A DNA stretch of 64,000 nucleotides from a virus. Lineage: Duplodnaviria > Caudoviricetes. Of the stretch, positions 39,800 to 53,739 are shown in pieces. The translations under genes were made by a program, and so were the position numbers. The stretch lies in the IMG/VR virus record IMGVR_UViG_3300032288_002134, positions 872 through 64,871 of that record. One strand, 5' to 3'. Every line of letters begins with the position of its first letter. Positions within the stretch are counted from its first letter, which is position 1. The notes under the pieces were generated by a model, which made no database searches, was not told where the DNA came from, and was given only the letters and a program-made list of their open reading frames with translations.

Positions 39800-42700
39800 A
39801 TGAACGAAGAGGCAGTAAAATACGCTTTTGATTTATTTGTAAAAGATGGATATGGTGATAATATAGATGATTTTAGAAATCTAATGAAATCAGATCCAAA
39901 AGCAATTGATTATGTTTTTAATTTATTTGTAAAAAATGGATATGGTGATAATATAAATGATTTTAAAAATCTATTAGGAATTACTCAATCCCAAGCAATC
40001 ACTCCAAAAAAAAAAGGAGAGAGTATGGTATCCGACTCGGAAGTTTCTTCTTCGGGTTTACCATCGGGTGAACAGCCTAAGCTTGAAGAGATACCTTTCT
40101 CTTTGGATTATCAGAAGCAACAGCAGCAAGTACCATTTAAGCCTTCAACTCCGGTAACTCAACCTGAGCAGAAAAGAGACGTGTCTAAACTAAAAGAATA
40201 TGATACTACTCAACAGTATGACAGATATGGTGTGCCTGTTACTCAGTTTCCTACAGCACAAAGAGAAGAGTATTTAGCTAAACCGGTACAGCAGATTGAG
40301 ACAAAAGTCAAGTTTGAAGAAAAGAAAGAGGAGCTTGAGAAACAAGTACCTGGTTTCTTAAAGCCATCTGTAGAGACAATAGACAAAAACTTTTTAGCTA
40401 GAACTTCACTTCCAATAATAAGCGATTTAAACAGACAATACAAAGAAGCAGGTTTTGAGTTTTCAGGCAATCCTGCTGATAAAACATATTTAATAGCAAA
40501 AGCTCCAAATGGACAAACATTAAATATCAATTTAGGATATTTTAATAATGCAGGATATATAAATGATATATCAGATGAAGCAGAAAGGTTAAAAGTTTTT
40601 ATCAAAGAAAATTCTCCATCTATACCGACTGAAAAAGTAAATAAATTACAAAAGGAATACGAGGAAGGTAAGCAAGAATTTCTTACACAAAAACAAATAG
40701 ATGAATCGAATAAATCTCTTTCAAAAGATTTAGAAGATTATGGCAAAAGAAATTTATCTTATACTCAGAGTTTAGATAATTTAAAAAAATCAATTGATGA
40801 ATTTAATGCAATACCTGAAAGTCAAAGAAATACTCCTGAATATATAAATAGAAGAAATGAAATTCAAAAACAAACTGATATATTGATTTCAGAGGAGAAC
40901 AGTCTTAAGCAATTTGAGAAAGATATAGAAGCTAAACAAAGTAATTTAAAAAAGTCACTAGGAGAATATACAAAGTATAAAGAAAATCAAGGTACTTTTG
41001 CAGGTGGTATTTGGAATTCAATATCAAATACAATAAGTTCAATGGTCGCAGGAACTGTTGCTGCCGGATCTGATATTATAACAGGGGCAACTCCTGCTGA
41101 ATGGTTATTAGGTAAAGAAGAATATGAAAAGCAATTCACTCAGATTGCCAAAGAAAAATATGGAATAGAAGGAGATAAATTTGATGACATAATAAGAAAT
41201 GATAAGTTAACAGAAGGAAGAGCAGCTCTTATAAATAGTGAATTAAAAGACAGAGTAAAGAAAGAACGAAAATATGGCAAAGAAGGGGAAGAAGGTGTAA
41301 TAAAATATCTAAGAGGTAGTGTGTATGATTTATTGGCAGATAAAAGCACTACTGAACAATGGGCTGAATTAAAAAATAAATCATTTATACCTCAAGCTAT
41401 ATTGGGTGTTAGTGGTAGCCTTCCAAATATGTTGATGCCTGGGGGTTGGATAGGTCGTGCTTTAGGTACTTTTATATCTACTTCTGATGGTGTATTTAAA
41501 GAAATGGAAAATAGTCCTAATTTCCAAAATATATCTGAAAATGAAAAATGGGCTGTTGCTGCTCCTTTAGGAATGGCTTCTGCTACATTAGAAGAGATAG
41601 GTTTATCTTCATTGTTAAAAGGAACTAATATAACAAAATATATAACAAAGATGGCATTAGACAAAGCAGGTGCTAATGTTACTCCAAATATATTTAAAGG
41701 ATTAGTAAAAAAAGAAGTTCAGGATTTAATATCTAATGGTACTCTAAAAGTAGTAAATGGTTTTTTAGCTGAAGCAGAAACAGGTGCTTTGCAAACAATA
41801 GCGGAATTTTCAATAAAGGATATATACAATACGGTAAAAGATAAAAAAGACGAAAACGGAAACCCTGTAAAGATGTTTGATACGCCTGATACTGTAACTG
41901 AATGGGTTACTGATGTATTGTATGGAGGTGCTGTTGAAGGTGTTGGAGGTCTTATGATTTCATCTGGTATGGCTGCTGCAAGTGCTTTTAATAATGACAA
42001 TTTTGTCAATATGGATAGCGATACTTTCAAGGCATTTGTTAATTCTTCAAATGATTTGAATGTAGAAAAAGCATTTATATCTGATTTGAAAAATAAGATT
42101 GCATCTGGAGATATGACAATGGCTGAAGGCAAGGATTTATTAAATAAATATAGACAAGCCAAAGGACTATTAAATTCATTGCCTAGCGAATTGGATGAAA
42201 AAGATAAAAGAGTAGCTTTAGATTTATTGAGTAAAAGAAAAAAGTTAGAGGATAAGATCCAAGGAAAAGATACAGCATTAGCTAAACCTATTCAGAATAG
42301 AATTGATCAAATTAACGAACAACTAAATCAAATAACAGAGAATGCCATTCAAAAGCAAACAGCAGGTGAAGTACCTGTACAGCCAGAAGCCGGAGTTGGC
42401 GAAGAAGTGGTCCAAGGAAAACCCGAAACAGGACTTGAAGTCACTTCCGAACAAGTTGTCACCGAAGAAAAGCCAAAAGAAGAGGTAGTAACACCTGAAG
42501 GTGTAGTAGAAAAAAAAGATATACAAGTTTACAGAGGTACATCTACTGGAAATAAATCTGATAAAGACGGAGTATCTTACCATACAACAGATAGAGGGTA
42601 TGCAGCGTTTTATGAAACAGGAAAAGAAAAGCCTGATAATAAAGCTTTAGAAGAACTTGAAGCCTTAACTCCTCCGAATAAACCAAATAAAGTAGAATTA

Positions 42701-45700
42701 TCAACTGAAGAGGAAGTAGATGCTTATGTTGATCAATGGATTTCTGACTATGAAGACGCAAAAAGATTCAAACCTGAGACTAAAATACCTTCAAGAGAAG
42801 AAGCTATATCAGAAATGAAACAGAGCGGTTATCCAATATTTCTTACTCAAGAAGAGGTTGATAACGAAAACAAAAAACAAGAGAAAAAATATAATTCTGA
42901 TTTAGAGAAATACAATCAAAAGAAATTAGAACTTGAAGATAAGGCTAAAAATTATTTATCACCCAAAAAAATATCTGGCAATTTCTTTAATCTTGGGATT
43001 GATTTTTCAAAAATGAATCCTCAACAGATATTTGAAAAATTGAAATCATTAGGAATATCAAGTGTGTTTAAAGGCGGTAATTTTTTAGACAATTATCATT
43101 CTGACTTAACAGAATATGCAAGAAAAAATAACATAGATTTCTATGATGGCATAACCGGTGGTGTTCAAGGTAGTATGAATACTGCTCCTCAAGAGATAAT
43201 TGAAGTTTCTAAATTAGAACAAGCACCTGCTGAGGTAAAGACTCCTGAGCAGGAAGCTGACCTATTGGAGGAATTACTGACCGGAAAGAAGAAAGAGCCG
43301 GCAATGACACCTCAAGTGGAAACAATGACACCTGGGGAAAAAGTAATGACACCTGAAGCGAAAGCGGAAGAAGAGATGATAGTTCAGCCTGAGTTTACCG
43401 AGCAGGATCAGGCAAGGAAGAGAGAGCTTGAAGATGCTCTGAAGAAGGCTGACAAGCGTAAGAAGAATGTTATGGTAGGTGAGGTGTCAATGCCAAAGGC
43501 TGAGGTTAAAGCAGAGCTTGATGCATTGAGACAGAAGGAGCAGGCTGTTGTTGAGGCAGAAGTTCAATCTATAGAAAAAATGTTATCAGCTCCTGAGCAA
43601 AAAGACAAAGGAAAGATAAGACAAGCTGTAACAAATGCAGTTAAGGCTATTGCTAAAATATTACCGAATACAAAGATAGTATTACACGAAACTAGTCAAG
43701 ATTATGTAAACGCTACCGGTGATACTGACAATGCATCAGGATTATATGTACCAAGCGCAGATGGAGGTACTATTCATATAAACTTATCTAATGCCAATAC
43801 AAGAACAGTAGGGCATGAGGTATTTCATGCTACATTACTCAGAGGTATTAAGACAGATGCTGAAGCTCAGAGATTAGCGAAAGCAATGATAGGAGCTGTA
43901 GCTAAGTCATTAAAACAATCAGGCGCAAATCAAGAGTTATTAAATGAACTTGAAAATTTCTTGTCTAACTATGATGAGAATATTCAAAATGAGGAATACT
44001 TAGCTGAAGTATTTGGATATCTCGCTGATGGATACCCACAGTTGACAGCACCTGAAAAAAGTATTATCAATAGATTCATTGAGAGAATAATGAAACTGTT
44101 TGGCTTAAAGCCAATGACAGACAAAGAGGTTATTGATTTTATGAATACCCTATCAAGGAAGGTAGCTACCGGTGAAGAGATAACAGAGAAAGAAGCAGGT
44201 ATTACAAAAAGAACTAAAGGAATATCTAATATAACAAAAAGATTTCAAGCAAATTTTATAGATCCTATTTCAAGACTTTCATTTGTTTATGATAAAAATA
44301 GTGAAAAATTTGAAAATTTAAAAAAGCAAGGATTTATAACTACAGATAAATCATTATCTGATTTTAATGGGAAATTTATATTCCTACATCAACCTGATGC
44401 AGCTTTTTCAGGTATGATTTATAAAAATAATGAACTTCTTGTTGAGGGAAAAGGAGGTGTTTTTTATCCTATTAAATTCCATGAAGATGGATATTTTTGG
44501 GCAAGTACATCAAAAACTGCCAAAAAAATGGCAGACGATTTAAATAAAGTATTAAAACAAAACAATGGAATTATTTATATGGCATTAACCTCTGCGCCAT
44601 ATGATAAACTAATGTCAAGCACAACAATGTCAAATGCAATACTTGATTTTTTCTCATCAAAAGCATTTGATAAAAATTTTAATATAACTCAAAAACAATT
44701 AAAAAATGCACTAATATTAGCTGCAAATAATGTAAAAGAAAAACAAAAAAAAGATAAAAAAACGGGAGAAATTACTACTAAAACTATAGGGTTAAATTTA
44801 AATATAAAACAAAATATTTCTTTAGAAAACATTCAAACTTTAATTAAAGAAAAATTAAATCCTGATAATAGTTCATTTGCAGATAGAAAGAATTTTGCTG
44901 AAGAGTTAATAAGAATAATGGCTGAGAATATTAAAGAAGATTCTAAGGCTATTGAACAATTTGGTAAATTATTCTCTGAAGGAATTCAAAATAAATATTT
45001 TAAAGGAATAACAAAAACAGGTAAATTAAGCATTAGTGCTGCAAATATGACTCAAGCACTATCTGAAATGTTTACTGAACCAATTTTAAAAGAAGGAATT
45101 GATAGAGAAAAAGGAGGTCAAGTATATGCTATATTAGAATTGAATGGTAAAGTTAAACCTGTTGAATCTAATAAACACGAATCATATCCTATGGCTATAC
45201 AGTCAGAAGGAAGTGAAAAAGTAAAAGTTCATGTTCTGAATGATAGACAGAATTGGTATGATGTATTTGAAGATTTTGAAACAAATGACATAGTAACTGA
45301 AGATAGAAAAAATAAAATATATCCTACTTCAGGAGTTTCGACAAGAGGATTAAAATTAAATACATCAAAAGTTGATGGCATATCACCTCGTCAGCAGAAA
45401 TCTACTGAAATAACAACAGATAAAGATGCTAAACCTGGCTTTGAAAAAGCTCTTAATTCGCTTAATGAAACTGAACAACAAAGAGAAGAATGGAGAAAAA
45501 CGCATAAAGTAAATCAAAAACAAAAACGTAATCCCATAGTAGAACAAGCTGTAAAAGATTATTATAATGAAAAAATAACTCAAGAAGAATATCTTGATAT
45601 AGTTTCTAAAAACCAACCTATTAAATCTTTTAAAAATGTTCCAAAATTACCAACTTTAAGAGAAATAACAAATTCTTTAGACAGCTCTAAAGTTGCCACA

Positions 45701-48700
45701 GGTATAATTGGATTAACTAAAAATTTAGAAGATGGAGAAAAAGTAGCTTGCAGATTAGATATACCTGCATATGAAGATTTTGATACTTGGGTTGTTTCTA
45801 TACATGATGGAAATAAAGAAGGAAAATCAATTGCATACGGTCAGACAGCTGTACTAAAAAATGTTGATTTTAAAACATTTCCTGGACCTGCAATGAAAAT
45901 TGCAATGGGTACTCAAAGTAAATCTACAATTGCTAGAATGTTTGGTAATTGGGTTAATGAAGATCCAGAATCAGTTCATGCAAGAGCAAAAGAACTAATG
46001 AATGACCCTGCTTGGACACAAGTAGGAATGAATCCATTTAGATATAGTTGGTTTTATGATAAGGCAGATGGAACGCCTATTTCTACAGCTGATGAAGTTA
46101 TTCAAGTGGGTGCATTAGTATTGGCTAAAAATGCAAAAAAAGTATCTACTAAAGATATAATGTTTGAAACTAAATCATCAACAGGATTATCAATAAGGTT
46201 TCAAAAAAATAATTCACAAGAAATTGTAAAACAAGCAAGAGCTAATGGTATATCAGATGCAGGCATAAGAGCCTATTTTAAAAAGAATGGTTTGTCTGAT
46301 ATTGAAATTGATGAATTACTTGAAGGAGAAAAAGGAGCAGGCAAAAAAATTGAGCTTTCTGAAGAGACTCTTCCTGGATACACCAAACTGATGAACAGAA
46401 TAAATGGTCTCATCTCAAGGGGTAGAAAAAGCGGAAAGTCTGATGATGTAATAATGCAAGGTGTTATTGCCAATGTAGAAGCAAACTCACCGGAATATGC
46501 CAATGCTACCGATCAACAGCGTGAGCAGATAATTCGTGACATCAGAAAGATGTTCGGAAAGAAAGAAAAGGCAGCACCATCAGCAGAGAAAATAACCGGT
46601 AAACCTAAATCTAAAAAGGTTACTGTAAATGAAATGGCTGCACTCAAAGACCAAATAAGATTAGAGGCAAGAGCTGCTAGAGAAGCTAAGGGTGATCTTA
46701 ATGCTAAACGTAAAATGTTAGCTGAGGCTATCAATAAACTCGTTGCTAAAGGTACTATTACCTTAAGACAAGCTAACGCTATTATCAAAAGGGTGAACCT
46801 GGTCAACCTTGACAATCCTATAATGGTTGAGAGATTACTTAATTATGCAGAAAAAGTATTTAAAGATGCTGAATATGCGGATAAATTAAGCGAAGCAAAT
46901 AAATTATTTTCATCTATAAAGCAATCGTCAAAGTCAAAAGAAAAGAATGCTGATTTAGTAACTCTTGCAAAAGAATTTTTAGGAATAGACCCATCTATGG
47001 TTGAGAATATAGATGAGTATATTCAAAAGGCTTCTGAGTTAGATAGTAGTTTAAAAGGTTCTAAGGCTACGGCAAAAGGTATGTCTGCTTCTGAAATGAT
47101 AAACATACAAGAAGCTACTGAATACATATCTGAAACAATAAAAGCTCAGGAGCAAAAGATAAAAGAACAGACTGCTGCTGAGATAGAGTCTACAATGGGT
47201 GTAGATGCATCTGATTTGACTTATGAACAAATGCTTGAGTTACTTGAAGATGAAAGTAAACCTATCAATAAAGATAAAGAAAAGGTTATCAGGAGTTTAG
47301 TTAATAAAATGTTTGATACATATTCAAGTATTATCGAATATATGTTTAAGACTGGTAAAAATCCTTTTGTTGTTTATGATGAGAATCTAAAATACGAACC
47401 GGTAACATTTAAAGAATCGGATAAGCAGATTGTTCGTGAATTTATGAAAATGGATCTCGGTAAGCTCAGTGTCAGAGAGGCATTGAAAGCTATGGATGCA
47501 TTAAATAACTTTATTGTCAATCGTTCAGTTGCCAATATGGGTTCTGTAGTAGCCCAATATAAAGCAAAACAAAACGCTGAAATAGTTGACAAAAAAAATA
47601 TAAGAAGCAAACCTGTAAAGTATTTATGGAGTAATACTTTGGGTAAAATGCTATTTGACAATTTTGCTTCATTCCCATTATTGATAGAAAGATTCTTTAA
47701 AAGTAAAGACATTGGTTTGTATGTATCCAGAATGATGGGTTTAAATGATTTGTTTAATGGTGCTTCTTCTGCAAAAACGATAACCGGTGTTGTAGTTAAA
47801 AACTATCTTGACCTATTCTCAAAAACAAAACCAAATGGTAAAGTATTTAATGATGCTTTTAACTTGGTAGAAAGGGGAATGGTTGCATTCATGTCAAGAC
47901 ACAAGATAGGAACGGATGCTCAGATAAAAGAAGAATTTAATGACAGAAAAAATGAAATTGAAGAGTCTATAAAAGCATTGTCTACAGGTACTAAAAGAGA
48001 ACAGGAAAAAGCTAAGGTTTATAAAGAAGTATATGACAAGTTGTTTAAAGATGCAAAGAACGCAGATGACATCAGAAATAATGCGGATAATAAAAATATA
48101 GAAGCTGTAGATTGGTGGGTTAACGAATGGAAAAATCATTATGATGAGTTAGCTGATGTATCATTAAAAATATACAATACAAAACTGGATAAGGATTCTT
48201 ATTACACCACCGATAGATATTCTAAATTGGAAGGGGTAGAAAAAGAAATAGATCTTGAGGATAATGTTTCAGCATTTAGCTTTAACAATGGAAATATATC
48301 TGAAAAGAAAGCAGGATCTTTAATGGAGACAAGAGATAAGAAATCGGGTCTTCCAAAAAATAAAGATGGAGAAGTCACAAGGTTTGTTGATTTATCTTTT
48401 GATGCCGTAAATGCAAATTCATTATACGATGCACTGACAGACATTAAAACTGCCTATGCTATTAAACAAGTAAAAGCATTTATGAAAACAGATGCTTTCA
48501 AAAGAATTGTACCTGATAAAGAAGAAAGAGATATATTAGGAAATAGAATAAACTTAGCTGTTAGAAATTTAAGAAATCAAAAATTATTTGATTCAAGTAC
48601 AATGAGTAAAGCTGTAAAGGGATTAAATAAATTTTCAAGCATTGGGTCTACAATGGCATTAGCCGGTATAGTGCAACCTTTTAAACAAACTATTCCTATA

Positions 48701-50125
48701 GCATTTAATACTGCTATAAATACAGGTAGATTTTTTGATTTATTACGGATACTAACAAATTCAGATGTAAAAGATTTTATTAACAATTCAGGATATTCAA
48801 TAGCAAATAGAGGTATAGAATCAAGTGTTCACCTTGAAAGTATAAATAAAAAATTAGATGAGGCTGCAAAGACAAAAGCTGAATATTTAGGTAATAAAAT
48901 ATTAGAATTGAATGAGATGTATATGAAACTTTTCTTGGCGAATCCTGATGCTTGGATAGCTAGAGCATCTTGGATGGCTTATTATGAAAAAGGGTTAAGA
49001 AAACAAGGTCTATACAAAACAACTGAAACAATAAAAACAGCTTCAGGAACTCGTGAGGTTACTAAAAAAGGAATTGATTATAGTAAGCATAAAATAAACA
49101 AAGAAGCTGCTGATTATGCTCAGATGATGATTGACAGACAGCAAAACATAACCGATACTAGATTGGCAGGTTCTATATATTCAGGTGAAAATGCCTTCCA
49201 AACTATGATGACAAAAATATTTTTGCCACTCGCCAGTTTTAGAATAAATCAACATTTGAGAATGTCTAATGACTTAGCAACTACATTTAGTAAAACTACA
49301 AGTTGGCAAGAAAAAAGAGAAGCATTAACATCTCTTTCAGGTGCAATAGTAGAAATGATTGTATTTAGAGCCATAGGAATAGGTGCTAGTTATTTATTTT
49401 TTGAATTAGCATCAATGATAAGAGGAGAAGAAGAAGATGAGGAGAAAAAGAAAAGAAAAGAAAAAATGGCTTCAAATACATTAAAAGGTATATTAACTGG
49501 AGCTGTAACAGATATATTATCTCCTATTCCTGTTACAGATTATCCGGTAAAGTATTCTGTTAATGCTGCAATGGATTTCACTCAGGATTTGATTGGAATG
49601 GGTGATGAAGATAAACTATCTTTATATGTTGAAAATATTCCTTCATTTTCAAGTGTATTAGGGACTGCCGGTATCTTTTTAGATAAAGTAGCAGATATAA
49701 AAGAAACAGCTCAAATGGCTGCTACAGGTAAGTTTGAACAAGATGTATTTGGTAAAAAAATTGAGAAAGAGATAAGCGAAAAGGACAGACAAATATTAGC
49801 ATGGTCTTTAATCCCATCAATACTCACAAATACTATATTACCTGGTGCGCCAGAGACAAATAATATTATGAGTAAAGTTAAAAAAGCTATTAAGAAAGAA
49901 GGTAAAACTGCCGATCAAAAAGAAAAATATGATGCATTTGGTGGGCATTCTTCTGAAAAAGAATTTAGAACGGAAAATCCTGAAAAGTACATGGAATCTT
50001 TGCAGCCAGGTGGTAGTTTATATGAATACAAAATGAGAGAAAATCAGAAAAAAATGGAAGAACTTCCAGAGAAATTACAAAAAAAGATGGAGGAGACTAT
50101 GAAAAAAGCAAATAAAATGCAGTAA
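39800..50125 (+). CDS. giant polyvalent virion protein (3441 aa) with zincin HExxH and possible ADP-ribosyltransferase-like segment
   Basis: TVGHEVFH...EEYLAE; VYRGT...SYHTTDRGYAAFY. Confidence 0.75.
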   Translation: MNEEAVKYAFDLFVKDGYGDNIDDFRNLMKSDPKAIDYVFNLFVKNGYGDNINDFKNLLGITQSQAITPKKKGESMVSDSEVSSSGLPSGEQPKLEEIPFSLDYQKQQQQVPFKPSTPVTQPEQKRDVSKLKEYDTTQQYDRYGVPVTQFPTAQREEYLAKPVQQIETKVKFEEKKEELEKQVPGFLKPSVETIDKNFLARTSLPIISDLNRQYKEAGFEFSGNPADKTYLIAKAPNGQTLNINLGYFNNAGYINDISDEAERLKVFIKENSPSIPTEKVNKLQKEYEEGKQEFLTQKQIDESNKSLSKDLEDYGKRNLSYTQSLDNLKKSIDEFNAIPESQRNTPEYINRRNEIQKQTDILISEENSLKQFEKDIEAKQSNLKKSLGEYTKYKENQGTFAGGIWNSISNTISSMVAGTVAAGSDIITGATPAEWLLGKEEYEKQFTQIAKEKYGIEGDKFDDIIRNDKLTEGRAALINSELKDRVKKERKYGKEGEEGVIKYLRGSVYDLLADKSTTEQWAELKNKSFIPQAILGVSGSLPNMLMPGGWIGRALGTFISTSDGVFKEMENSPNFQNISENEKWAVAAPLGMASATLEEIGLSSLLKGTNITKYITKMALDKAGANVTPNIFKGLVKKEVQDLISNGTLKVVNGFLAEAETGALQTIAEFSIKDIYNTVKDKKDENGNPVKMFDTPDTVTEWVTDVLYGGAVEGVGGLMISSGMAAASAFNNDNFVNMDSDTFKAFVNSSNDLNVEKAFISDLKNKIASGDMTMAEGKDLLNKYRQAKGLLNSLPSELDEKDKRVALDLLSKRKKLEDKIQGKDTALAKPIQNRIDQINEQLNQITENAIQKQTAGEVPVQPEAGVGEEVVQGKPETGLEVTSEQVVTEEKPKEEVVTPEGVVEKKDIQVYRGTSTGNKSDKDGVSYHTTDRGYAAFYETGKEKPDNKALEELEALTPPNKPNKVELSTEEEVDAYVDQWISDYEDAKRFKPETKIPSREEAISEMKQSGYPIFLTQEEVDNENKKQEKKYNSDLEKYNQKKLELEDKAKNYLSPKKISGNFFNLGIDFSKMNPQQIFEKLKSLGISSVFKGGNFLDNYHSDLTEYARKNNIDFYDGITGGVQGSMNTAPQEIIEVSKLEQAPAEVKTPEQEADLLEELLTGKKKEPAMTPQVETMTPGEKVMTPEAKAEEEMIVQPEFTEQDQARKRELEDALKKADKRKKNVMVGEVSMPKAEVKAELDALRQKEQAVVEAEVQSIEKMLSAPEQKDKGKIRQAVTNAVKAIAKILPNTKIVLHETSQDYVNATGDTDNASGLYVPSADGGTIHINLSNANTRTVGHEVFHATLLRGIKTDAEAQRLAKAMIGAVAKSLKQSGANQELLNELENFLSNYDENIQNEEYLAEVFGYLADGYPQLTAPEKSIINRFIERIMKLFGLKPMTDKEVIDFMNTLSRKVATGEEITEKEAGITKRTKGISNITKRFQANFIDPISRLSFVYDKNSEKFENLKKQGFITTDKSLSDFNGKFIFLHQPDAAFSGMIYKNNELLVEGKGGVFYPIKFHEDGYFWASTSKTAKKMADDLNKVLKQNNGIIYMALTSAPYDKLMSSTTMSNAILDFFSSKAFDKNFNITQKQLKNALILAANNVKEKQKKDKKTGEITTKTIGLNLNIKQNISLENIQTLIKEKLNPDNSSFADRKNFAEELIRIMAENIKEDSKAIEQFGKLFSEGIQNKYFKGITKTGKLSISAANMTQALSEMFTEPILKEGIDREKGGQVYAILELNGKVKPVESNKHESYPMAIQSEGSEKVKVHVLNDRQNWYDVFEDFETNDIVTEDRKNKIYPTSGVSTRGLKLNTSKVDGISPRQQKSTEITTDKDAKPGFEKALNSLNETEQQREEWRKTHKVNQKQKRNPIVEQAVKDYYNEKITQEEYLDIVSKNQPIKSFKNVPKLPTLREITNSLDSSKVATGIIGLTKNLEDGEKVACRLDIPAYEDFDTWVVSIHDGNKEGKSIAYGQTAVLKNVDFKTFPGPAMKIAMGTQSKSTIARMFGNWVNEDPESVHARAKELMNDPAWTQVGMNPFRYSWFYDKADGTPISTADEVIQVGALVLAKNAKKVSTKDIMFETKSSTGLSIRFQKNNSQEIVKQARANGISDAGIRAYFKKNGLSDIEIDELLEGEKGAGKKIELSEETLPGYTKLMNRINGLISRGRKSGKSDDVIMQGVIANVEANSPEYANATDQQREQIIRDIRKMFGKKEKAAPSAEKITGKPKSKKVTVNEMAALKDQIRLEARAAREAKGDLNAKRKMLAEAINKLVAKGTITLRQANAIIKRVNLVNLDNPIMVERLLNYAEKVFKDAEYADKLSEANKLFSSIKQSSKSKEKNADLVTLAKEFLGIDPSMVENIDEYIQKASELDSSLKGSKATAKGMSASEMINIQEATEYISETIKAQEQKIKEQTAAEIESTMGVDASDLTYEQMLELLEDESKPINKDKEKVIRSLVNKMFDTYSSIIEYMFKTGKNPFVVYDENLKYEPVTFKESDKQIVREFMKMDLGKLSVREALKAMDALNNFIVNRSVANMGSVVAQYKAKQNAEIVDKKNIRSKPVKYLWSNTLGKMLFDNFASFPLLIERFFKSKDIGLYVSRMMGLNDLFNGASSAKTITGVVVKNYLDLFSKTKPNGKVFNDAFNLVERGMVAFMSRHKIGTDAQIKEEFNDRKNEIEESIKALSTGTKREQEKAKVYKEVYDKLFKDAKNADDIRNNADNKNIEAVDWWVNEWKNHYDELADVSLKIYNTKLDKDSYYTTDRYSKLEGVEKEIDLEDNVSAFSFNNGNISEKKAGSLMETRDKKSGLPKNKDGEVTRFVDLSFDAVNANSLYDALTDIKTAYAIKQVKAFMKTDAFKRIVPDKEERDILGNRINLAVRNLRNQKLFDSSTMSKAVKGLNKFSSIGSTMALAGIVQPFKQTIPIAFNTAINTGRFFDLLRILTNSDVKDFINNSGYSIANRGIESSVHLESINKKLDEAAKTKAEYLGNKILELNEMYMKLFLANPDAWIARASWMAYYEKGLRKQGLYKTTETIKTASGTREVTKKGIDYSKHKINKEAADYAQMMIDRQQNITDTRLAGSIYSGENAFQTMMTKIFLPLASFRINQHLRMSNDLATTFSKTTSWQEKREALTSLSGAIVEMIVFRAIGIGASYLFFELASMIRGEEEDEEKKKRKEKMASNTLKGILTGAVTDILSPIPVTDYPVKYSVNAAMDFTQDLIGMGDEDKLSLYVENIPSFSSVLGTAGIFLDKVADIKETAQMAATGKFEQDVFGKKIEKEISEKDRQILAWSLIPSILTNTILPGAPETNNIMSKVKKAIKKEGKTADQKEKYDAFGGHSSEKEFRTENPEKYMESLQPGGSLYEYKMRENQKKMEELPEKLQKKMEETMKKANKMQ
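42342..42488 (+). CDS. overprinted 48-aa basic protein (MPFKSKQQVKYLYSQKPELAKKW...) in the +1 frame of the giant gene
   Basis: ATG after AACTAAATCAAATAACAGAGA leader; TAG at 42486-42488. Confidence 0.6.
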   Translation: MPFKSKQQVKYLYSQKPELAKKWSKENPKQDLKSLPNKLSPKKSQKKR

Positions 50126-50130
50126 AAGTG

Positions 50131-50511
50131 CTAATACCTCACATACTTTGTTCCTTTCTGCTTATCGAAATACATCATTAGTTCGTCAATACATTCAGTA
50201 AGTGGGGCATCACAGCCCCACATTACTGTACCTGTAATATCATTCGCCTTAGCATAGATAATGCCATCCTCACAAGCCCATATCACTATAGGATTGAGTC
50301 TCTTGTCGCACAGCTTAACCATTCTTTTTGCCGGTATAGGCAGAGGGTAGGCATTGTAGATAGTCCTTACTCTCTCCCTTACCTCGGCATAGGCTATGAG
50401 TTTCTTGTCAACATTGAATACTTTATAGTCAATGTCGTTATCATCAAGCTTTTGATACGATCCGTTGAATACGGATACAAAGCAATCAATGGCTTTTTTC
50501 TTTTTGCTCAT
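50131..50511 (-). CDS. PD-(D/E)xK-like nuclease
   Basis: IDY...YAEVR motif. Confidence 0.5.
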   Translation of the reverse strand: MSKKKKAIDCFVSVFNGSYQKLDDNDIDYKVFNVDKKLIAYAEVRERVRTIYNAYPLPIPAKRMVKLCDKRLNPIVIWACEDGIIYAKANDITGTVMWGCDAPLTECIDELMMYFDKQKGTKYVRY

Positions 50512-50848
50512 TTGATTTTACTCTTTCTATTGATTCAAGTGCTAGCTTATTTACTTCCTCTATAAACCAATCTACCTCCATAGGTGGTATAAGAGCCATT
50601 ACTGACATTATTACTGTCATGGCTTCTACGTTATTGAAATTATAAGCGTGTAGTTCAGCTAACTGTTCTTTTGTGACCTTACGTTCAAGACCTACTAAGA
50701 AGTTTTTCATAAATTGTCTTAGGTTCTTATACTTGTACTTGTCCTCTCTACCCATTCTGTCGGGTTCAAGTTCTGTGATGGCATAACAACCTGCATTGAG
50801 GCAGCTTATAAGTAGATATAAGTCTGCTGCTTTTTTACTTTTACTCAT
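50486..50848 (-). CDS. hypothetical protein
   Basis: 120-aa ORF. Confidence 0.7.
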   Translation of the reverse strand: MSKSKKAADLYLLISCLNAGCYAITELEPDRMGREDKYKYKNLRQFMKNFLVGLERKVTKEQLAELHAYNFNNVEAMTVIMSVMALIPPMEVDWFIEEVNKLALESIERVKSNEQKEKSH

Positions 50849-50908
50849 TTGAATTTGATTTTATTTAATTAAAAAATATATGCGCCACGTTATGAGGCTT
50901 AGCGATTA

Positions 50909-51661
50909 GTTAGCACCAATACTACCATCCTGCACATTTGAGAATATGTAGTCCTAATTTTGGCTCAACACAATTATTTAATAAGGTTCTTTTATCCCCT
51001 TTGTAATTGTGCCAATCTTTTATTTCATACCCTTTTGCATCCATTTTTATTTTTAGCGTTATACCTTTATTGTTGCCAGTATCATTAGTTTTTATTTCTA
51101 TTTTAGGTATTTCAAAGTTTGTCCAAAATGAATGTCTGCCAATATATTGCGGAGTTATAAGTGGTTCGTACCAACTTTTTACATTTTCTACTACAAATTT
51201 TATTTCTTTTCCTTTTGTATATTGTTGCAAAAACAATATTTCTTCATACAATTTCATATCAGGAAATAATGCTTTACCCTTACCATTGCAATATGCTTTA
51301 AATCTCATTCTGCTATGTGTTGGACAAGGCGGTGAACACCATATAAAATCATAATTCATAAAATTATCTTGTAAATATTGATGAGCATCGGCAACAATCA
51401 CCTTATCGTTTGGATAAAAGTCTTGATATATTTTAGCAATACTCTCATTATATTCAACTGCGGTTACTTCTACATTTTCCCAAAGTTTGCGATTACCTCC
51501 TATGCCACAATACAGATTAAGAACCCGTACTGGTGCTAACAGCACATTGCCAAAAGTGGGGGTTTCCGTTTTCAAATCAAGTTTATCTTTCATATTAAAT
51601 TTAGTTTTTCAATTAAAGTTTAGTGGTACAATGCCCCACCTTCGGCAATCTGCAAAACGTT
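50909..51661 (+). mobile_element. integron-like gene cassette 1 (attC-like site 51527-51661) carrying a reversed methyltransferase gene
   Basis: GTTAGCACCAATAC start complements GTACTGGTGCTAAC; inner arms TTGCCAAAAGTGGGG/CCCCACCTTCGGCAA; ends at GTT. Confidence 0.65.
50922..51593 (-). CDS. C5 cytosine DNA methyltransferase
   Basis: LYCGIGG (motif I), SPPC (IV), ENV (VI). Confidence 0.85.
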   Translation of the reverse strand: MKDKLDLKTETPTFGNVLLAPVRVLNLYCGIGGNRKLWENVEVTAVEYNESIAKIYQDFYPNDKVIVADAHQYLQDNFMNYDFIWCSPPCPTHSRMRFKAYCNGKGKALFPDMKLYEEILFLQQYTKGKEIKFVVENVKSWYEPLITPQYIGRHSFWTNFEIPKIEIKTNDTGNNKGITLKIKMDAKGYEIKDWHNYKGDKRTLLNNCVEPKLGLHILKCAGW

Positions 51662-51899
51662 ATCCTTTAAATATTTCTACTTTTATTCCTTTGTCTGTCA
51701 GCTCTTTATGTCTGTACTCTTGTAGTTTTGTCGCTTTACCTCCAGGTGTCTTCACCTCTATGAATAGAACATCAGAGTTCGGTGGTATGGCGATAAGATC
51801 TGGTATGCCATTCTTGTTTGTCTTAGTCAGCTTGATGACGTAGTATCCTTGAGCCTCCAATTCTTTAATCTTCTTGGTCTGTATCTGTTGCTCCGTCAT
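51660..51899 (-). CDS. VRR-NUC nuclease
   Basis: EQQIQ...GIPDL...FIEVK...LQ. Confidence 0.85.
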   Translation of the reverse strand: MTEQQIQTKKIKELEAQGYYVIKLTKTNKNGIPDLIAIPPNSDVLFIEVKTPGGKATKLQEYRHKELTDKGIKVEIFKG

Positions 51900-51947
51900 A
51901 TACCATTGTTATTATTGAGAAGATTAAAAATATAAGTATAGCCATTG

Positions 51948-52238
51948 TCACGACATTATAACCTGTTTGTAGAATTCATTCGCCTCAGCAGAGTCCATGA
52001 CTAATTTCTCAAGTTTCTCTCTGTCTTCAAAGTCTATGGCGAACCTGTAAGCGGAGAAGAATTGGTATGGGTAGCAGGTATTGTCAAGGTCTATCTCATG
52101 CAGTTGAAATGCCAGTAGCCCTTGAGGTAGCACAACGGTGGCAAAGATAATATGGTATTCTTCACCTTCCTTTACCCATTTGCTCAAAGGTATGTCATTG
52201 GGTCTTGCAATGTCATCAATACATATACATCTTATCAT
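51948..52238 (-). CDS. hypothetical protein
   Basis: 96-aa ORF, CICIDD start. Confidence 0.7.
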   Translation of the reverse strand: MIRCICIDDIARPNDIPLSKWVKEGEEYHIIFATVVLPQGLLAFQLHEIDLDNTCYPYQFFSAYRFAIDFEDREKLEKLVMDSAEANEFYKQVIMS

Positions 52239-52522
52239 TTTTTTGTTGATTTTTTATTGTGACCATTTCTTGCTCTGTTGGTGCTTTTGGACTCAGAGAC
52301 AAGCTTTCCTGATTTGGTATGGCTCATGTCTTTGCCATCACCGTTGCCGTATGTACCGGCATCTCTGTTTTTACGATTGAGTTCTACCCTGTAGTTCTTA
52401 CGCTCCTCTGTCTCGTGGTATGCCTTGTCGTAGGCAAGCTTCTTCTTCCTGCGTTCTTCTGACATACCAAGTTTGTCATAAGATGGGTGCTTACCGGCTA
52501 ATGAGTTCTTTTTACTTTTCAT
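52235..52522 (-). CDS. HNH-like basic protein
   Basis: GDGKDMSH...STNRARN. Confidence 0.55.
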   Translation of the reverse strand: MKSKKNSLAGKHPSYDKLGMSEERRKKKLAYDKAYHETEERKNYRVELNRKNRDAGTYGNGDGKDMSHTKSGKLVSESKSTNRARNGHNKKSTKK

Positions 52523-53739
52523 AGTGTTCTTCTAAAATGGTTAACGGTATAATCTTTTTTCTTTGTCACTGCTCTATATACATCGTATTCGATGCCTCCC
52601 TTTGCGAATATCCAATAGACGTTGTTCTCAAGCCTCTCCTTGGTGGTCATACGGTCTTTAGACTGCCAATAACTCGTTGCGCTGAAGTCTATGTTGTAGT
52701 AGACCAAGAACTCTGCGTTACGCAGGGAAATCCCCTCACGCCCAGAAACAATCTGCAATGCGATCGACTTGTCGGTGTTGTTGAACTCGTCAAGCTCTGT
52801 AGTCAAACTATCATCAAAAACATCTTTTAACGCAGTTAGTTCCGCTTTGAATTTATAGAAGATACCAATCTTCTTACCGGCAAAATGCTCCTTTATAAAA
52901 TCAGCCTTTGACGTGTCTATTATCATGGAATTTCCACTCTCAAATTTTATCGTGCCGGAGTATAATTGGTGTAATTTCATCATCAACTTAACTGGAGTAT
53001 CTGCCAGGATAACTTCCTCTCTACCTTCTACTACTAAACTTTTCTTGAGCTTATTTATCAGGAAGTAGGTCGAATCTTTTAGCTCCACCTCTAATACCTC
53101 CTCTGTCACGTTTGAGGCGAACCCTGCCTCCTTTTGAGTATAGGAGATGGTGTATAGCTTCATCATTTTTAAGATGGTCTCCTTGCCATTGGAATAGTCT
53201 CTGATGAACAGGCTGTTTATCTTCTTCTCCTTCACGTCAACGTAGTCGTTGGCAAACCTGTAGAAGTTAGCGTATTGTTCAAACGGATTACCTTTGATGC
53301 CATATACCTGATGGTACATCTGAGAGTAAGACTCCGGTGTAGGTGTTCCGGACAATAGTATTACTTTCATTCTGTTCTTGCTCAGGATAGCTTTGATGTC
53401 TTTGGCTCTCTTGTTTGGTTTAGGGAATGCTCCCATGCCATGTGCTTCGTCAAGGATTAGCATATCCCATTTTTGATTGTCTATGGTATGAAGGCTCTCG
53501 TAGTTTATGACTGTTATGTTGTATGCAGGAGATAGCATTTCGTAGTCTGCTGTGATTGTGCTTATTGCTTTTTTCTTTGTGATGAACAGTACGTTTTTTT
53601 CGTTCATTTGCTGTGCTATGCCAAGGCTTGTGAGTGTCTTACCGGTTCGTACCTCCATTGCAAGGTATAAGAAATTATACTTCCTTAGTATTTCACAGCC
53701 TTCAGATATGATGTTCTTTTGATAGTCTCTAAATTCCAT
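52519..53739 (-). CDS. SF2 (SNF2-like) helicase
   Basis: FRDYQ, RTGKT, LDEAH, LSGTP, REGISL, QSKDR; start trimmed to MEFRDYQ. Confidence 0.88.
   Translation of the reverse strand: MEFRDYQKNIISEGCEILRKYNFLYLAMEVRTGKTLTSLGIAQQMNEKNVLFITKKKAISTITADYEMLSPAYNITVINYESLHTIDNQKWDMLILDEAHGMGAFPKPNKRAKDIKAILSKNRMKVILLSGTPTPESYSQMYHQVYGIKGNPFEQYANFYRFANDYVDVKEKKINSLFIRDYSNGKETILKMMKLYTISYTQKEAGFASNVTEEVLEVELKDSTYFLINKLKKSLVVEGREEVILADTPVKLMMKLHQLYSGTIKFESGNSMIIDTSKADFIKEHFAGKKIGIFYKFKAELTALKDVFDDSLTTELDEFNNTDKSIALQIVSGREGISLRNAEFLVYYNIDFSATSYWQSKDRMTTKERLENNVYWIFAKGGIEYDVYRAVTKKKDYTVNHFRRTL

Follow-up and report, generated by a model that had tools for sequence, protein, structure and literature searches.

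A phage methyltransferase gene as a solitary member of a large integron-like cassette family in Bacteroidota phages

The attC sites of integrons are imperfect palindromes of about 57-141 bp that fold as stem-loops, with the core consensus GTTRRRY in the R′ box and RYYYAAC in the R″ box. Extrahelical bases and an unpaired central spacer set the choice of strand, and the site lies 3′ of the cassette gene, which is carried on the top strand. Recombination on folded single-stranded DNA is also known for Xer, in the integration of the CTX phage at dif. Here we analyse a short DNA methyltransferase gene and the hairpin at its 5′ end in a window of 64,000 nucleotides, the whole stretch of freshwater phage DNA under study, which covers almost the entire length of a complete 64,871-bp genome bearing direct terminal repeats. 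The gene and its hairpin constitute a cassette that stands alone in this phage but belongs to a large, apparently undescribed family of integron-like cassettes in Bacteroidota phages.

When 10,705 phage genomes were screened by means of IntegronFinder and HattCI, clusters of attC sites without an integrase (CALINs), with methyltransferase cargo, were reported in 17 phages, including virulent ones (Qi et al. 2023, PMC9892861). According to the same report, five of six phage attC sites that were assayed recombined with IntI1, one of the five being from the Polaribacter phage P12002L (PMC9892861). In T4-like phages, repeated regulatory stem-loop motifs named PeSLs (promoter-early stem-loops) border small variable genes that are gained, lost or swapped, as is also the case for the hairpins considered here. 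The abstract presents PeSLs as promoter/terminator composites that act by homologous recombination, and mentions neither gene-spanning inverted repeats nor a fixed 4-nt crossover core (Comeau, Arbiol, Krisch 2014, PMC4122927). The family described below does have a repeated stem-loop at gene borders, with most breakpoints at TAAC|G and some inside hairpins.

The cassette is located on the minus strand of the window, which is the sense strand of its gene, and is composed of the following features, given from 5′ to 3′ in the sense direction:

51659..51662, minus strand: upstream core TAAC (sense), of which TAA is the VRR-NUC stop codon
51528..51668, minus strand: structured site of the long class, 141 nt (covariance model R1, 139.3 bits, E 1.6e-29)
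51591..51593, minus strand: methyltransferase ATG within the loop of the site, start of the open reading frame (ORF)
51543-51545, minus strand: possible alternative methyltransferase start, GTG
51527..51540, minus strand: left inverted repeat, sense GTTAGCACCAGTAC, coding and specifying LAPV
50922..51593, minus strand: cargo gene, short C5 cytosine DNA methyltransferase of 223 aa (PF00145)
50909..50922, minus strand: right inverted repeat, sense GTATTGGTGCTAAC, directly after the stop codon TAG and ending in the core TAAC
50876..50908, minus strand: ~33 unexplained additional nt that separate the end of the cassette from an intergenic stretch common to relatives

On the plus strand the two inverted 14-mers read GTTAGCACCAATAC (50909-50922) and GTACTGGTGCTAAC (51527-51540); they are complementary at 13 of 14 positions and lie 604 nt apart. 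The inner arms, TTGCCAAAAGTGGGG (51547-51561) and CCCCACCTTCGGCAA (51634-51648), belong to a main stem of 16 bp (51634-51649 with 51546-51561) enclosing a loop of ~72 nt. The site further comprises an R-box pair, UAACG/UGUUA, a 4-nt U bulge and a 3-bp lower stem; besides the bulge and two conserved G-U pairs it contains a 1x1 mismatch, and its outer cores are 133 nt apart. GTTATCC starts at 51659, its TTA being the reverse complement of the stop codon TAA of the VRR-NUC gene (ORF 51660-51899, minus strand), and the crossover point would lie at TAA|C within this upstream core. The methyltransferase residues TPTFGNVLLAPV are encoded by the 3′ arm of the site and the inverted repeat. All sequence statements of an initial annotation of this DNA hold, whether they concern the repeats, the arms, the closing GTT, the VRR-NUC stop or the antisense methyltransferase with its ATG in the loop and its site-encoded N-terminus. 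The site is the only one detected by R1 in the window.

Taken by itself, the locus is modestly above chance and thus suggestive. With up to three mismatches the 14-mer occurs 10 times in the window where 3.65 occurrences are expected; the two copies at the cassette ends are the only ones with at most one mismatch, and there is no other convincing copy in the window of either the repeat 14-mer or the 5′ motif of the site. Folded as RNA, the minus strand reaches -35.5 kcal/mol (z -2.09), a value matched by 5 of 200 shuffles; folded as DNA, the plus strand is no better than shuffles (z -0.37). The two mismatches between the arms are G-U wobbles on the sense strand of the gene only. Three simple explanations have been set aside. 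The comparative data rule out a chance inverted repeat. An invertible (phase-variable) gene segment is ruled out by the occurrence of this repeat-bounded gene in unrelated contexts, and an RNase III site by the fact that the 3′ arm is coding.

The strength of the cassette finding comes from comparative data and not from the locus alone: a fold with covariation, cassette-specific repeats, arrays, differences of whole units at TAAC|G and the absence of the gene from relatives. A 16-nt seed taken from the 5′ end of the site has matches in more than 118 viral contigs, some of them to be expected by chance; 63 of 123 seed matches have a gapless stem of at least 11 bp, mostly followed by GCTGTTA. 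The covariance model R1 gave 52 matches in contigs L001-L100 and 239 in contigs L101-L198, the latter with same-strand arrays of up to 9-11 sites. It also detected 15 sites between positions 2695 and 9941 of the cultured Flavobacterium phage vB_FspS_hemulen6-1 (L200, MN812208), about a fifth of the genome, and 106 matches in 40 genome contigs, mostly from metagenome-assembled genomes of Bacteroidota and including two Pedobacter isolates. A CALIN requires at least two attC sites close together; the window contains a single site, and the arrays of the family reach 15.

The secondary structure of the site is conserved by compensating changes. In 18 long sites aligned by hand, 96.8% of the cells are paired compared to 78.8% in shuffled alignments, and 39-50% in controls in which the pairing partner was slid; 14 pairs change on both sides, which was reached by none of 500 shuffles. 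Among 113 sites aligned with R1, an alignment that consequently leans towards the model, 95.2% of the cells are paired (68.1% when shuffled), and both partners vary in 18 of 19 main-helix pairs. The two G-U pairs persist in 111 and 109 of these 113 sites, and TAACG is invariant in 112-113 of them. Rfam returned no family at threshold for the site of the window or for seven array loci, and we found no description of the site family in the open-access library searched.

A unit, read in the sense direction, starts with TAAC|G, the 4-nt bulge, the 3-bp lower stem, the stem of ~16 bp and a loop of 20-75 nt, and continues with T-GTTA and about nine cassette-specific bases, the gene, and finally the inverse bases ending in TAAC. 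The lower stem itself covaries (GCAG...GTGC versus GCGG...CCGC). Each gene is bracketed in this way by inverted repeats of the type GTTAxxxxx...xxxxxTAAC which are particular to the cassette. Of 84 sites with at least 1500 nt of downstream sequence, 78 have an inverted 13-mer ending in TAAC with no more than three mismatches (one in 50 of them), compared to 12 of 84 in the shuffled control. The layout of an integrated cassette that had been read from the window is borne out by the family: the two ends are best taken as halves of one stem, and the same layout flanks unrelated genes many times. The three bases that follow GTTA are equally cassette-specific; GTTAGCA and GTTATCC in the window do not fit RRRY, and some members of the family, with GTTAGGC or GTTAGGT, fit the attC core consensus.

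Cassette bodies are small (median 436 nt), and 76 of 78 cassettes have their longest ORF on the strand of the site, with the site at its 5′ side. The orientation of the methyltransferase, initially attributed to a cassette captured in reverse, is the rule of the family and no accident of capture. Matches to methyltransferase families account for 21 of 77 distinct cargo ORFs (17 PF01555, 2 PF00145, 1 Dam and 1 TRM); the other cargo genes mostly lack any Pfam match, apart from a few with domains of unknown function. The cargo gene frequently ends on the TAA of the closing TAAC, or else its stop codon precedes the end of that core by 13-14 nt.

The start codon in the loop is likewise a family trait: 38 of the 77 distinct ORFs have an ATG inside the loop that is read in frame. 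In these cases translation runs on through the 3′ arm, GTTA and the left repeat, using either of two frames, so that proteins with nothing else in common include site-encoded residues. The site also serves gene expression: it carries the start codon and the first ~17 codons of the gene. As a separate observation, at long-class sites (for example L106:5147-5875, L117:4283-4528, L187:514-909) unrelated proteins begin with one and the same in-frame leader encoded by the loop, of the type M..DLKNETPxFGNVLL. Other sites are read in the second frame through GCTGTTA (..GAVS..), and the third frame yields Cys-Cys and then Tyr or a stop.

The methyltransferase matches PF00145 over residues 23-113 (E 1.5e-08, 34.9 bits for a cut-off of 22), a match confined to the N-terminal third of the profile. 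Orphan phage methyltransferases are known for an anti-restriction role and, by analogy, the cargo enzyme most likely shields phage DNA from host restriction enzymes. Viral contigs contain 541 relatives of the gene; the best 80 of these were compared for start position and flanking sequences. In 53 of the 80 the protein begins with an ATG at the position of residue 22, which argues against the loop ATG as the start, and no repeat or hairpin was present in those flanks of the 53 that were inspected. TGTTA occurs within 20 nt upstream of the residue-22 position in 5 of the 80.

Of these five, L001, L040, L057 and L060 have the layout of the window, and L077 has it with different repeats. In the first four the left inverted repeat is identical to that of the window even though the gene proteins are only 49-91% identical. 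The upstream genes differ in all five loci, each of their stop codons falling in the conserved TAAC. Window and L001 provide unrelated contexts: the DNA they have in common runs only from the left to the right inverted repeat, and identity stops 1 nt past the TAAC of the right repeat. Here the body is 93% identical and the hairpin 64%, its stem being kept by compensating changes, whereas the comparison with L040 gives the reverse pattern, with 82% for the hairpin and 68% for the body. In L077 the right repeat of the methyltransferase is directly followed by a second hairpin and then by GTTAGCCGCTGGCC. The prediction that the next gene should end with the inverse of GTTAGCCGCTGGCC held, as the unrelated 62-aa ORF found there closes with TAG GCTTGCGGCTAAC; upstream there is a third unit, GTTAGTGGC...GCCACTAAC.

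The window's own lineage was sampled by means of the neighbouring helicase, which identified 80 relatives with ~66-73% protein identity. The VRR-NUC gene is present in 75 of them and the methyltransferase in none, and R1 gave one weak match in the entire set. Two relatives, L262 and L266, have the gene order of the window without the cassette. In L262 the VRR-NUC stop, GGATAA, is directly followed by the leader of the next gene, and in the window the site starts right after GGATAA; the left border therefore fits TAA|C exactly. An empty site of the form GCGATTAG|TTATCC had been expected from the initial annotation: L262 agrees with it at the left border and departs from it at the right border, where ~33 nt more are missing. 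This extra sequence contains another TAACG, similar to the first bases of a site, and a repeat (D6) relates 50878-50893 to 51648-51663 with 75% identity; the sequence may be what is left of a second unit, or of the target. MW202828, the nearest relative in GenBank, is too rearranged to show the empty site. As to the surroundings of the cassette, a single ORF of 3441 aa on the plus strand (window 39800-50125) stops 6 nt before the converging minus-strand cassette block, and a pattern scan among viral contigs found no relatives of the neighbouring 120-aa protein.

Five cultured Baltic Flavobacterium phages (L200-L204, the hemulen/sniff/snork/stinky/mumin group) form a natural comparison set. These phages differ by whole cassettes, several of which encode methyltransferases. 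Between hemulen6-1 and stinky9-1, whose other DNA is 99.9-100% identical, the difference is a 1165-nt block of two cassettes bounded by TAACG, one of its two units carrying a methyltransferase. In the pair sniff9-1 and snork6-1, with 100% identity elsewhere, it is a 433-nt unit that has only ATAACG at its bounds. When all pairs of the five phages are taken together, 31 of 69 breakpoints, which are not independent events, are situated within 10 nt of TAAC|G compared to 5.8% of random positions. Close relatives lacking units break at the GTT/AAC cores, so that the refuting outcome named with the initial annotation, breakpoints away from the GTT sites, was not obtained. Methyltransferase content is reported to vary in the hemulen-group phages and to track the efficiency of plating on alternative hosts; the terms hairpin, stem-loop and cassette are not used in the paper describing them (PMC7077304).

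We also compared the contigs of four freshwater metagenome runs with positions 49800-52800 of the window. They diverge from the window at module borders (50901/50907, 51535/51537, 51547 and 51662/51663) and pile up on both repeat regions; hairpin and body are therefore reused elsewhere. The cassette is in place in one 7.8-kb contig (X2). High-depth joints (50925-51525; 51556/51565-51636/51639) were rejected as excision products: their sides are shorter than 30 nt, and they are therefore read as other repeat copies. In three freshwater/lake runs the summed contig depth at 50810-51011 and 51517-51617 was 10-20x that of the flanks, so that the repeats and hairpin ends must be common to many other elements in those communities.

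The units have much in common with integron cassettes. Both are small, mostly single-gene units in same-strand arrays, with a folded imperfect palindrome whose structure is conserved more than its sequence and with GTT/AAC cores. In both, the cassette start is complementary to the inverse core (13/14 in the window), the unit borders fall at the core, one site family is joined to many unrelated genes and methyltransferases occur as phage cargo. Our preferred interpretation is that a mobile cassette, from a large integron-like family native to Bacteroidota phages, carries the methyltransferase gene as its cargo, a conclusion we regard as evenly balanced between right and wrong. The two cassette-specific repeats would be the halves of one long stem that is whole only in the circular unit. 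This circle would open at TAA|C on integration, much as integron cassettes open in the R′ box, and a site-specific recombination reaction using the folded sense strand would take units out and put them in. A stem split in this manner would account for the fixed cores, the strand asymmetry, the arrays, the association of one site family with many genes and the unit-sized differences between phages. The enzyme would be a tyrosine recombinase of the Xer/IntI clade originating from the host or from a co-infecting phage; its supply in trans is postulated because the phage of the window has none, and we would give this point about equal chances of standing or falling. The CTX phage resembles such a scheme in that a tyrosine recombinase of the IntI clade acts on a hairpin of one phage strand with no phage integrase. 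It differs in that the whole phage enters one chromosomal site and no gene-sized cassettes are moved within phage genomes.

Several observations weigh against a mobile cassette of this kind. Unlike in integron cassettes, the site of the phage family lies 5′ of the gene on the folding strand, often with the start codon. In apparent contrast to attC, with its extrahelical bases and central bubble, it has a split stem of 9-14 bp that is cassette-specific, a one-sided 4-nt bulge and two near-invariant G-U wobbles; the restriction of the wobbles to the sense strand is as compatible with folded RNA as with folded single-stranded DNA. In the window, the insertion does not have its right border at the cassette TAAC, given the ~33 further nt absent from L262. 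The hairpin and the gene body assort separately, as seen in the comparisons with L001 and L040. Among the 69 breakpoints of the cultured phages, five are at TGTTA| (compared to 5.4% of random positions), and several lie 14-26 nt inside the hairpin or at the start of the right repeat; homologous exchange between similar hairpins predicts such breakpoints, a single crossover point does not. Neither a circle nor an empty site was present among the contigs of the four metagenome runs, which cannot show rare forms. The models R1 and R2 found no match in P12002L (NC_028924) at E values up to 1. Inspection by eye of this phage (L199, 29150-31000) shows a compact 62-nt hairpin between TTGCTAAC and GTTAGGCAC upstream of the gp35 methyltransferase, with GTGCCTAAC downstream, and the neighbouring gp36 has only a degenerate right repeat. 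The link of the family to the IntI1-active attC of P12002L is a resemblance by eye only.

The search for a recombinase gave further points on this side. The initial annotation had noted that no integrase is encoded in the window, and this holds for the whole 64,871-bp genome, which contains no PF00589 recombinase. The integron integrase TIGR02249 was over cut-off in none of five site-bearing Bacteroidota genomes, and the participation of an integron-type recombinase from a host or helper, as first suggested, is unproven; in this absence of IntI from the phage and the five genomes the family also differs from integrons. These five genomes do have Xer-like enzymes. Of five array-bearing phage records only one has a PF00589 recombinase; PF00239 (serine recombinase) had no match in them, and PF01797 (Y1 transposase) was over cut-off in none, the one weak match scoring 13.2 bits. 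That one recombinase is a candidate: it is a 266-aa Xer-like tyrosine recombinase encoded directly after the last cassette of an array, at L334:1465-2265 (minus strand), the same as L112:6886-7686. Its best NCBIfam matches are XerA, XerD, XerC and the integron integrase, the latter in two pieces, all below their cut-offs. Homologues with 38-53% identity are found in seven more loci (L218, L229, L177, L173, L160, L190 and L206), and the gene is on the downstream side of the arrays in 8 of 8. This enzyme may drive the recombination of the units, or it may simply serve related temperate phages as their lysogeny integrase and occupy this position by plain synteny.

Many of the same observations would be expected if the site were primarily an expression element, operating in the mRNA or the promoter region, with its conserved ends (TAACGTTTTGC... 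and ...GCTGTTA) serving as short portable homology for general recombination between phages, by which the intervening genes would be shuffled. We consider this, the main alternative, possible, if on the unlikely side. The site would supply each gene with its translation start and leader, and might add a promoter or an insulator. That the wobbles are present on the transcribed strand only, two of them being nearly invariant, that half of the cargo ORFs (38/77) have an in-frame start codon in the loop and that every site is 5′ of, and co-oriented with, a gene is readily understood in these terms. So are the independent assortment of hairpin and gene and the breakpoints inside hairpins or at GTTA; moreover, the annotation of hemulen6-1 lists a recombination protein and an exonuclease but no integrase, and the PeSLs of T4-like phages are a reported precedent (PMC4122927). 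However, an expression element offers no reason for gene-spanning, covarying and cassette-specific repeats (78/84 versus 12/84 sites). The 6-nt repeat bounding the sniff/snork unit is very short for homologous exchange, and the breakpoints cluster at TAAC|G rather than along the ~100-nt hairpins. The cassette and the expression element may both be partly true.

A canonical integron cassette, with a true attC brought in by a host IntI, seems improbable to us; the site would then be a solitary attC as listed in surveys of clustered and solitary attC sites (CALINs and SALINs). The distance of 133 nt between its outer cores is within the size range of attC, and the cores themselves (GTTA.../...TAAC), with a cassette start complementary to the inverse core, look the part, but throughout the family the genes point the other way from those of integron cassettes, and the bases after GTTA in the window (GTTAGCA, GTTATCC) do not fit RRRY. 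Integrons have been reported in Bacteroidota (PMC8618304) and phage attC sites recombine with IntI1 (PMC9892861), yet the phage and five of five host genomes lack IntI. More indirectly, the main text of the 10,705-genome screen names no Flavobacterium phage, although hemulen6-1 holds 15 sites (PMC9892861). Least probable is a single-strand transposon of the IS200/IS605 type or with another HUH enzyme, or an element like a miniature inverted-repeat transposable element, using the hairpin as its recognition structure: the hairpin does adjoin a short conserved tetranucleotide resembling a cleavage site and folds in a strand-specific manner, but there is one hairpin per unit where IS200/IS605 elements have a Y1 HUH transposase and subterminal hairpins at both ends, PF01797 was over cut-off in 0/5 array-bearing phage records, and a transposase would not recognise cassette-specific repeats.

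Returning to the mobile cassette, we put forward, tentatively and with rather more doubt than confidence, that Bacteroidota phages own an IntI-independent cassette system parallel to integrons. As a whole, this proposal would have the folded 5′ site double as recombination site and as translation start and leader, and the units circularise and reinsert at TAA|C through the action of a Xer-like enzyme on single-stranded DNA. The enzyme would be encoded by the host, or would be the 266-aa phage enzyme downstream of the arrays in 8 loci. Through arrays that take up about a fifth of some phage genomes, anti-restriction methyltransferases and small genes of unknown function would be traded between phages.

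For genome annotation, the family means that many small phage genes start within a conserved structured element, and their true N-termini are therefore easily miscalled. Cultured phage-host pairs with 15-site arrays and natural variants that have gained or lost units make the system directly testable. The family is abundant in the Bacteroidota viruses of freshwater, marine and soil habitats and, if the proposed movement is true, it would explain how near-identical phages come to differ by whole methyltransferase genes. It also bears on the origin of attC sites and cassettes, and on the possibility that Xer-type enzymes run cassettes without IntI. If the units move as proposed, they would constitute a second, phage-borne cassette platform beside integrons.

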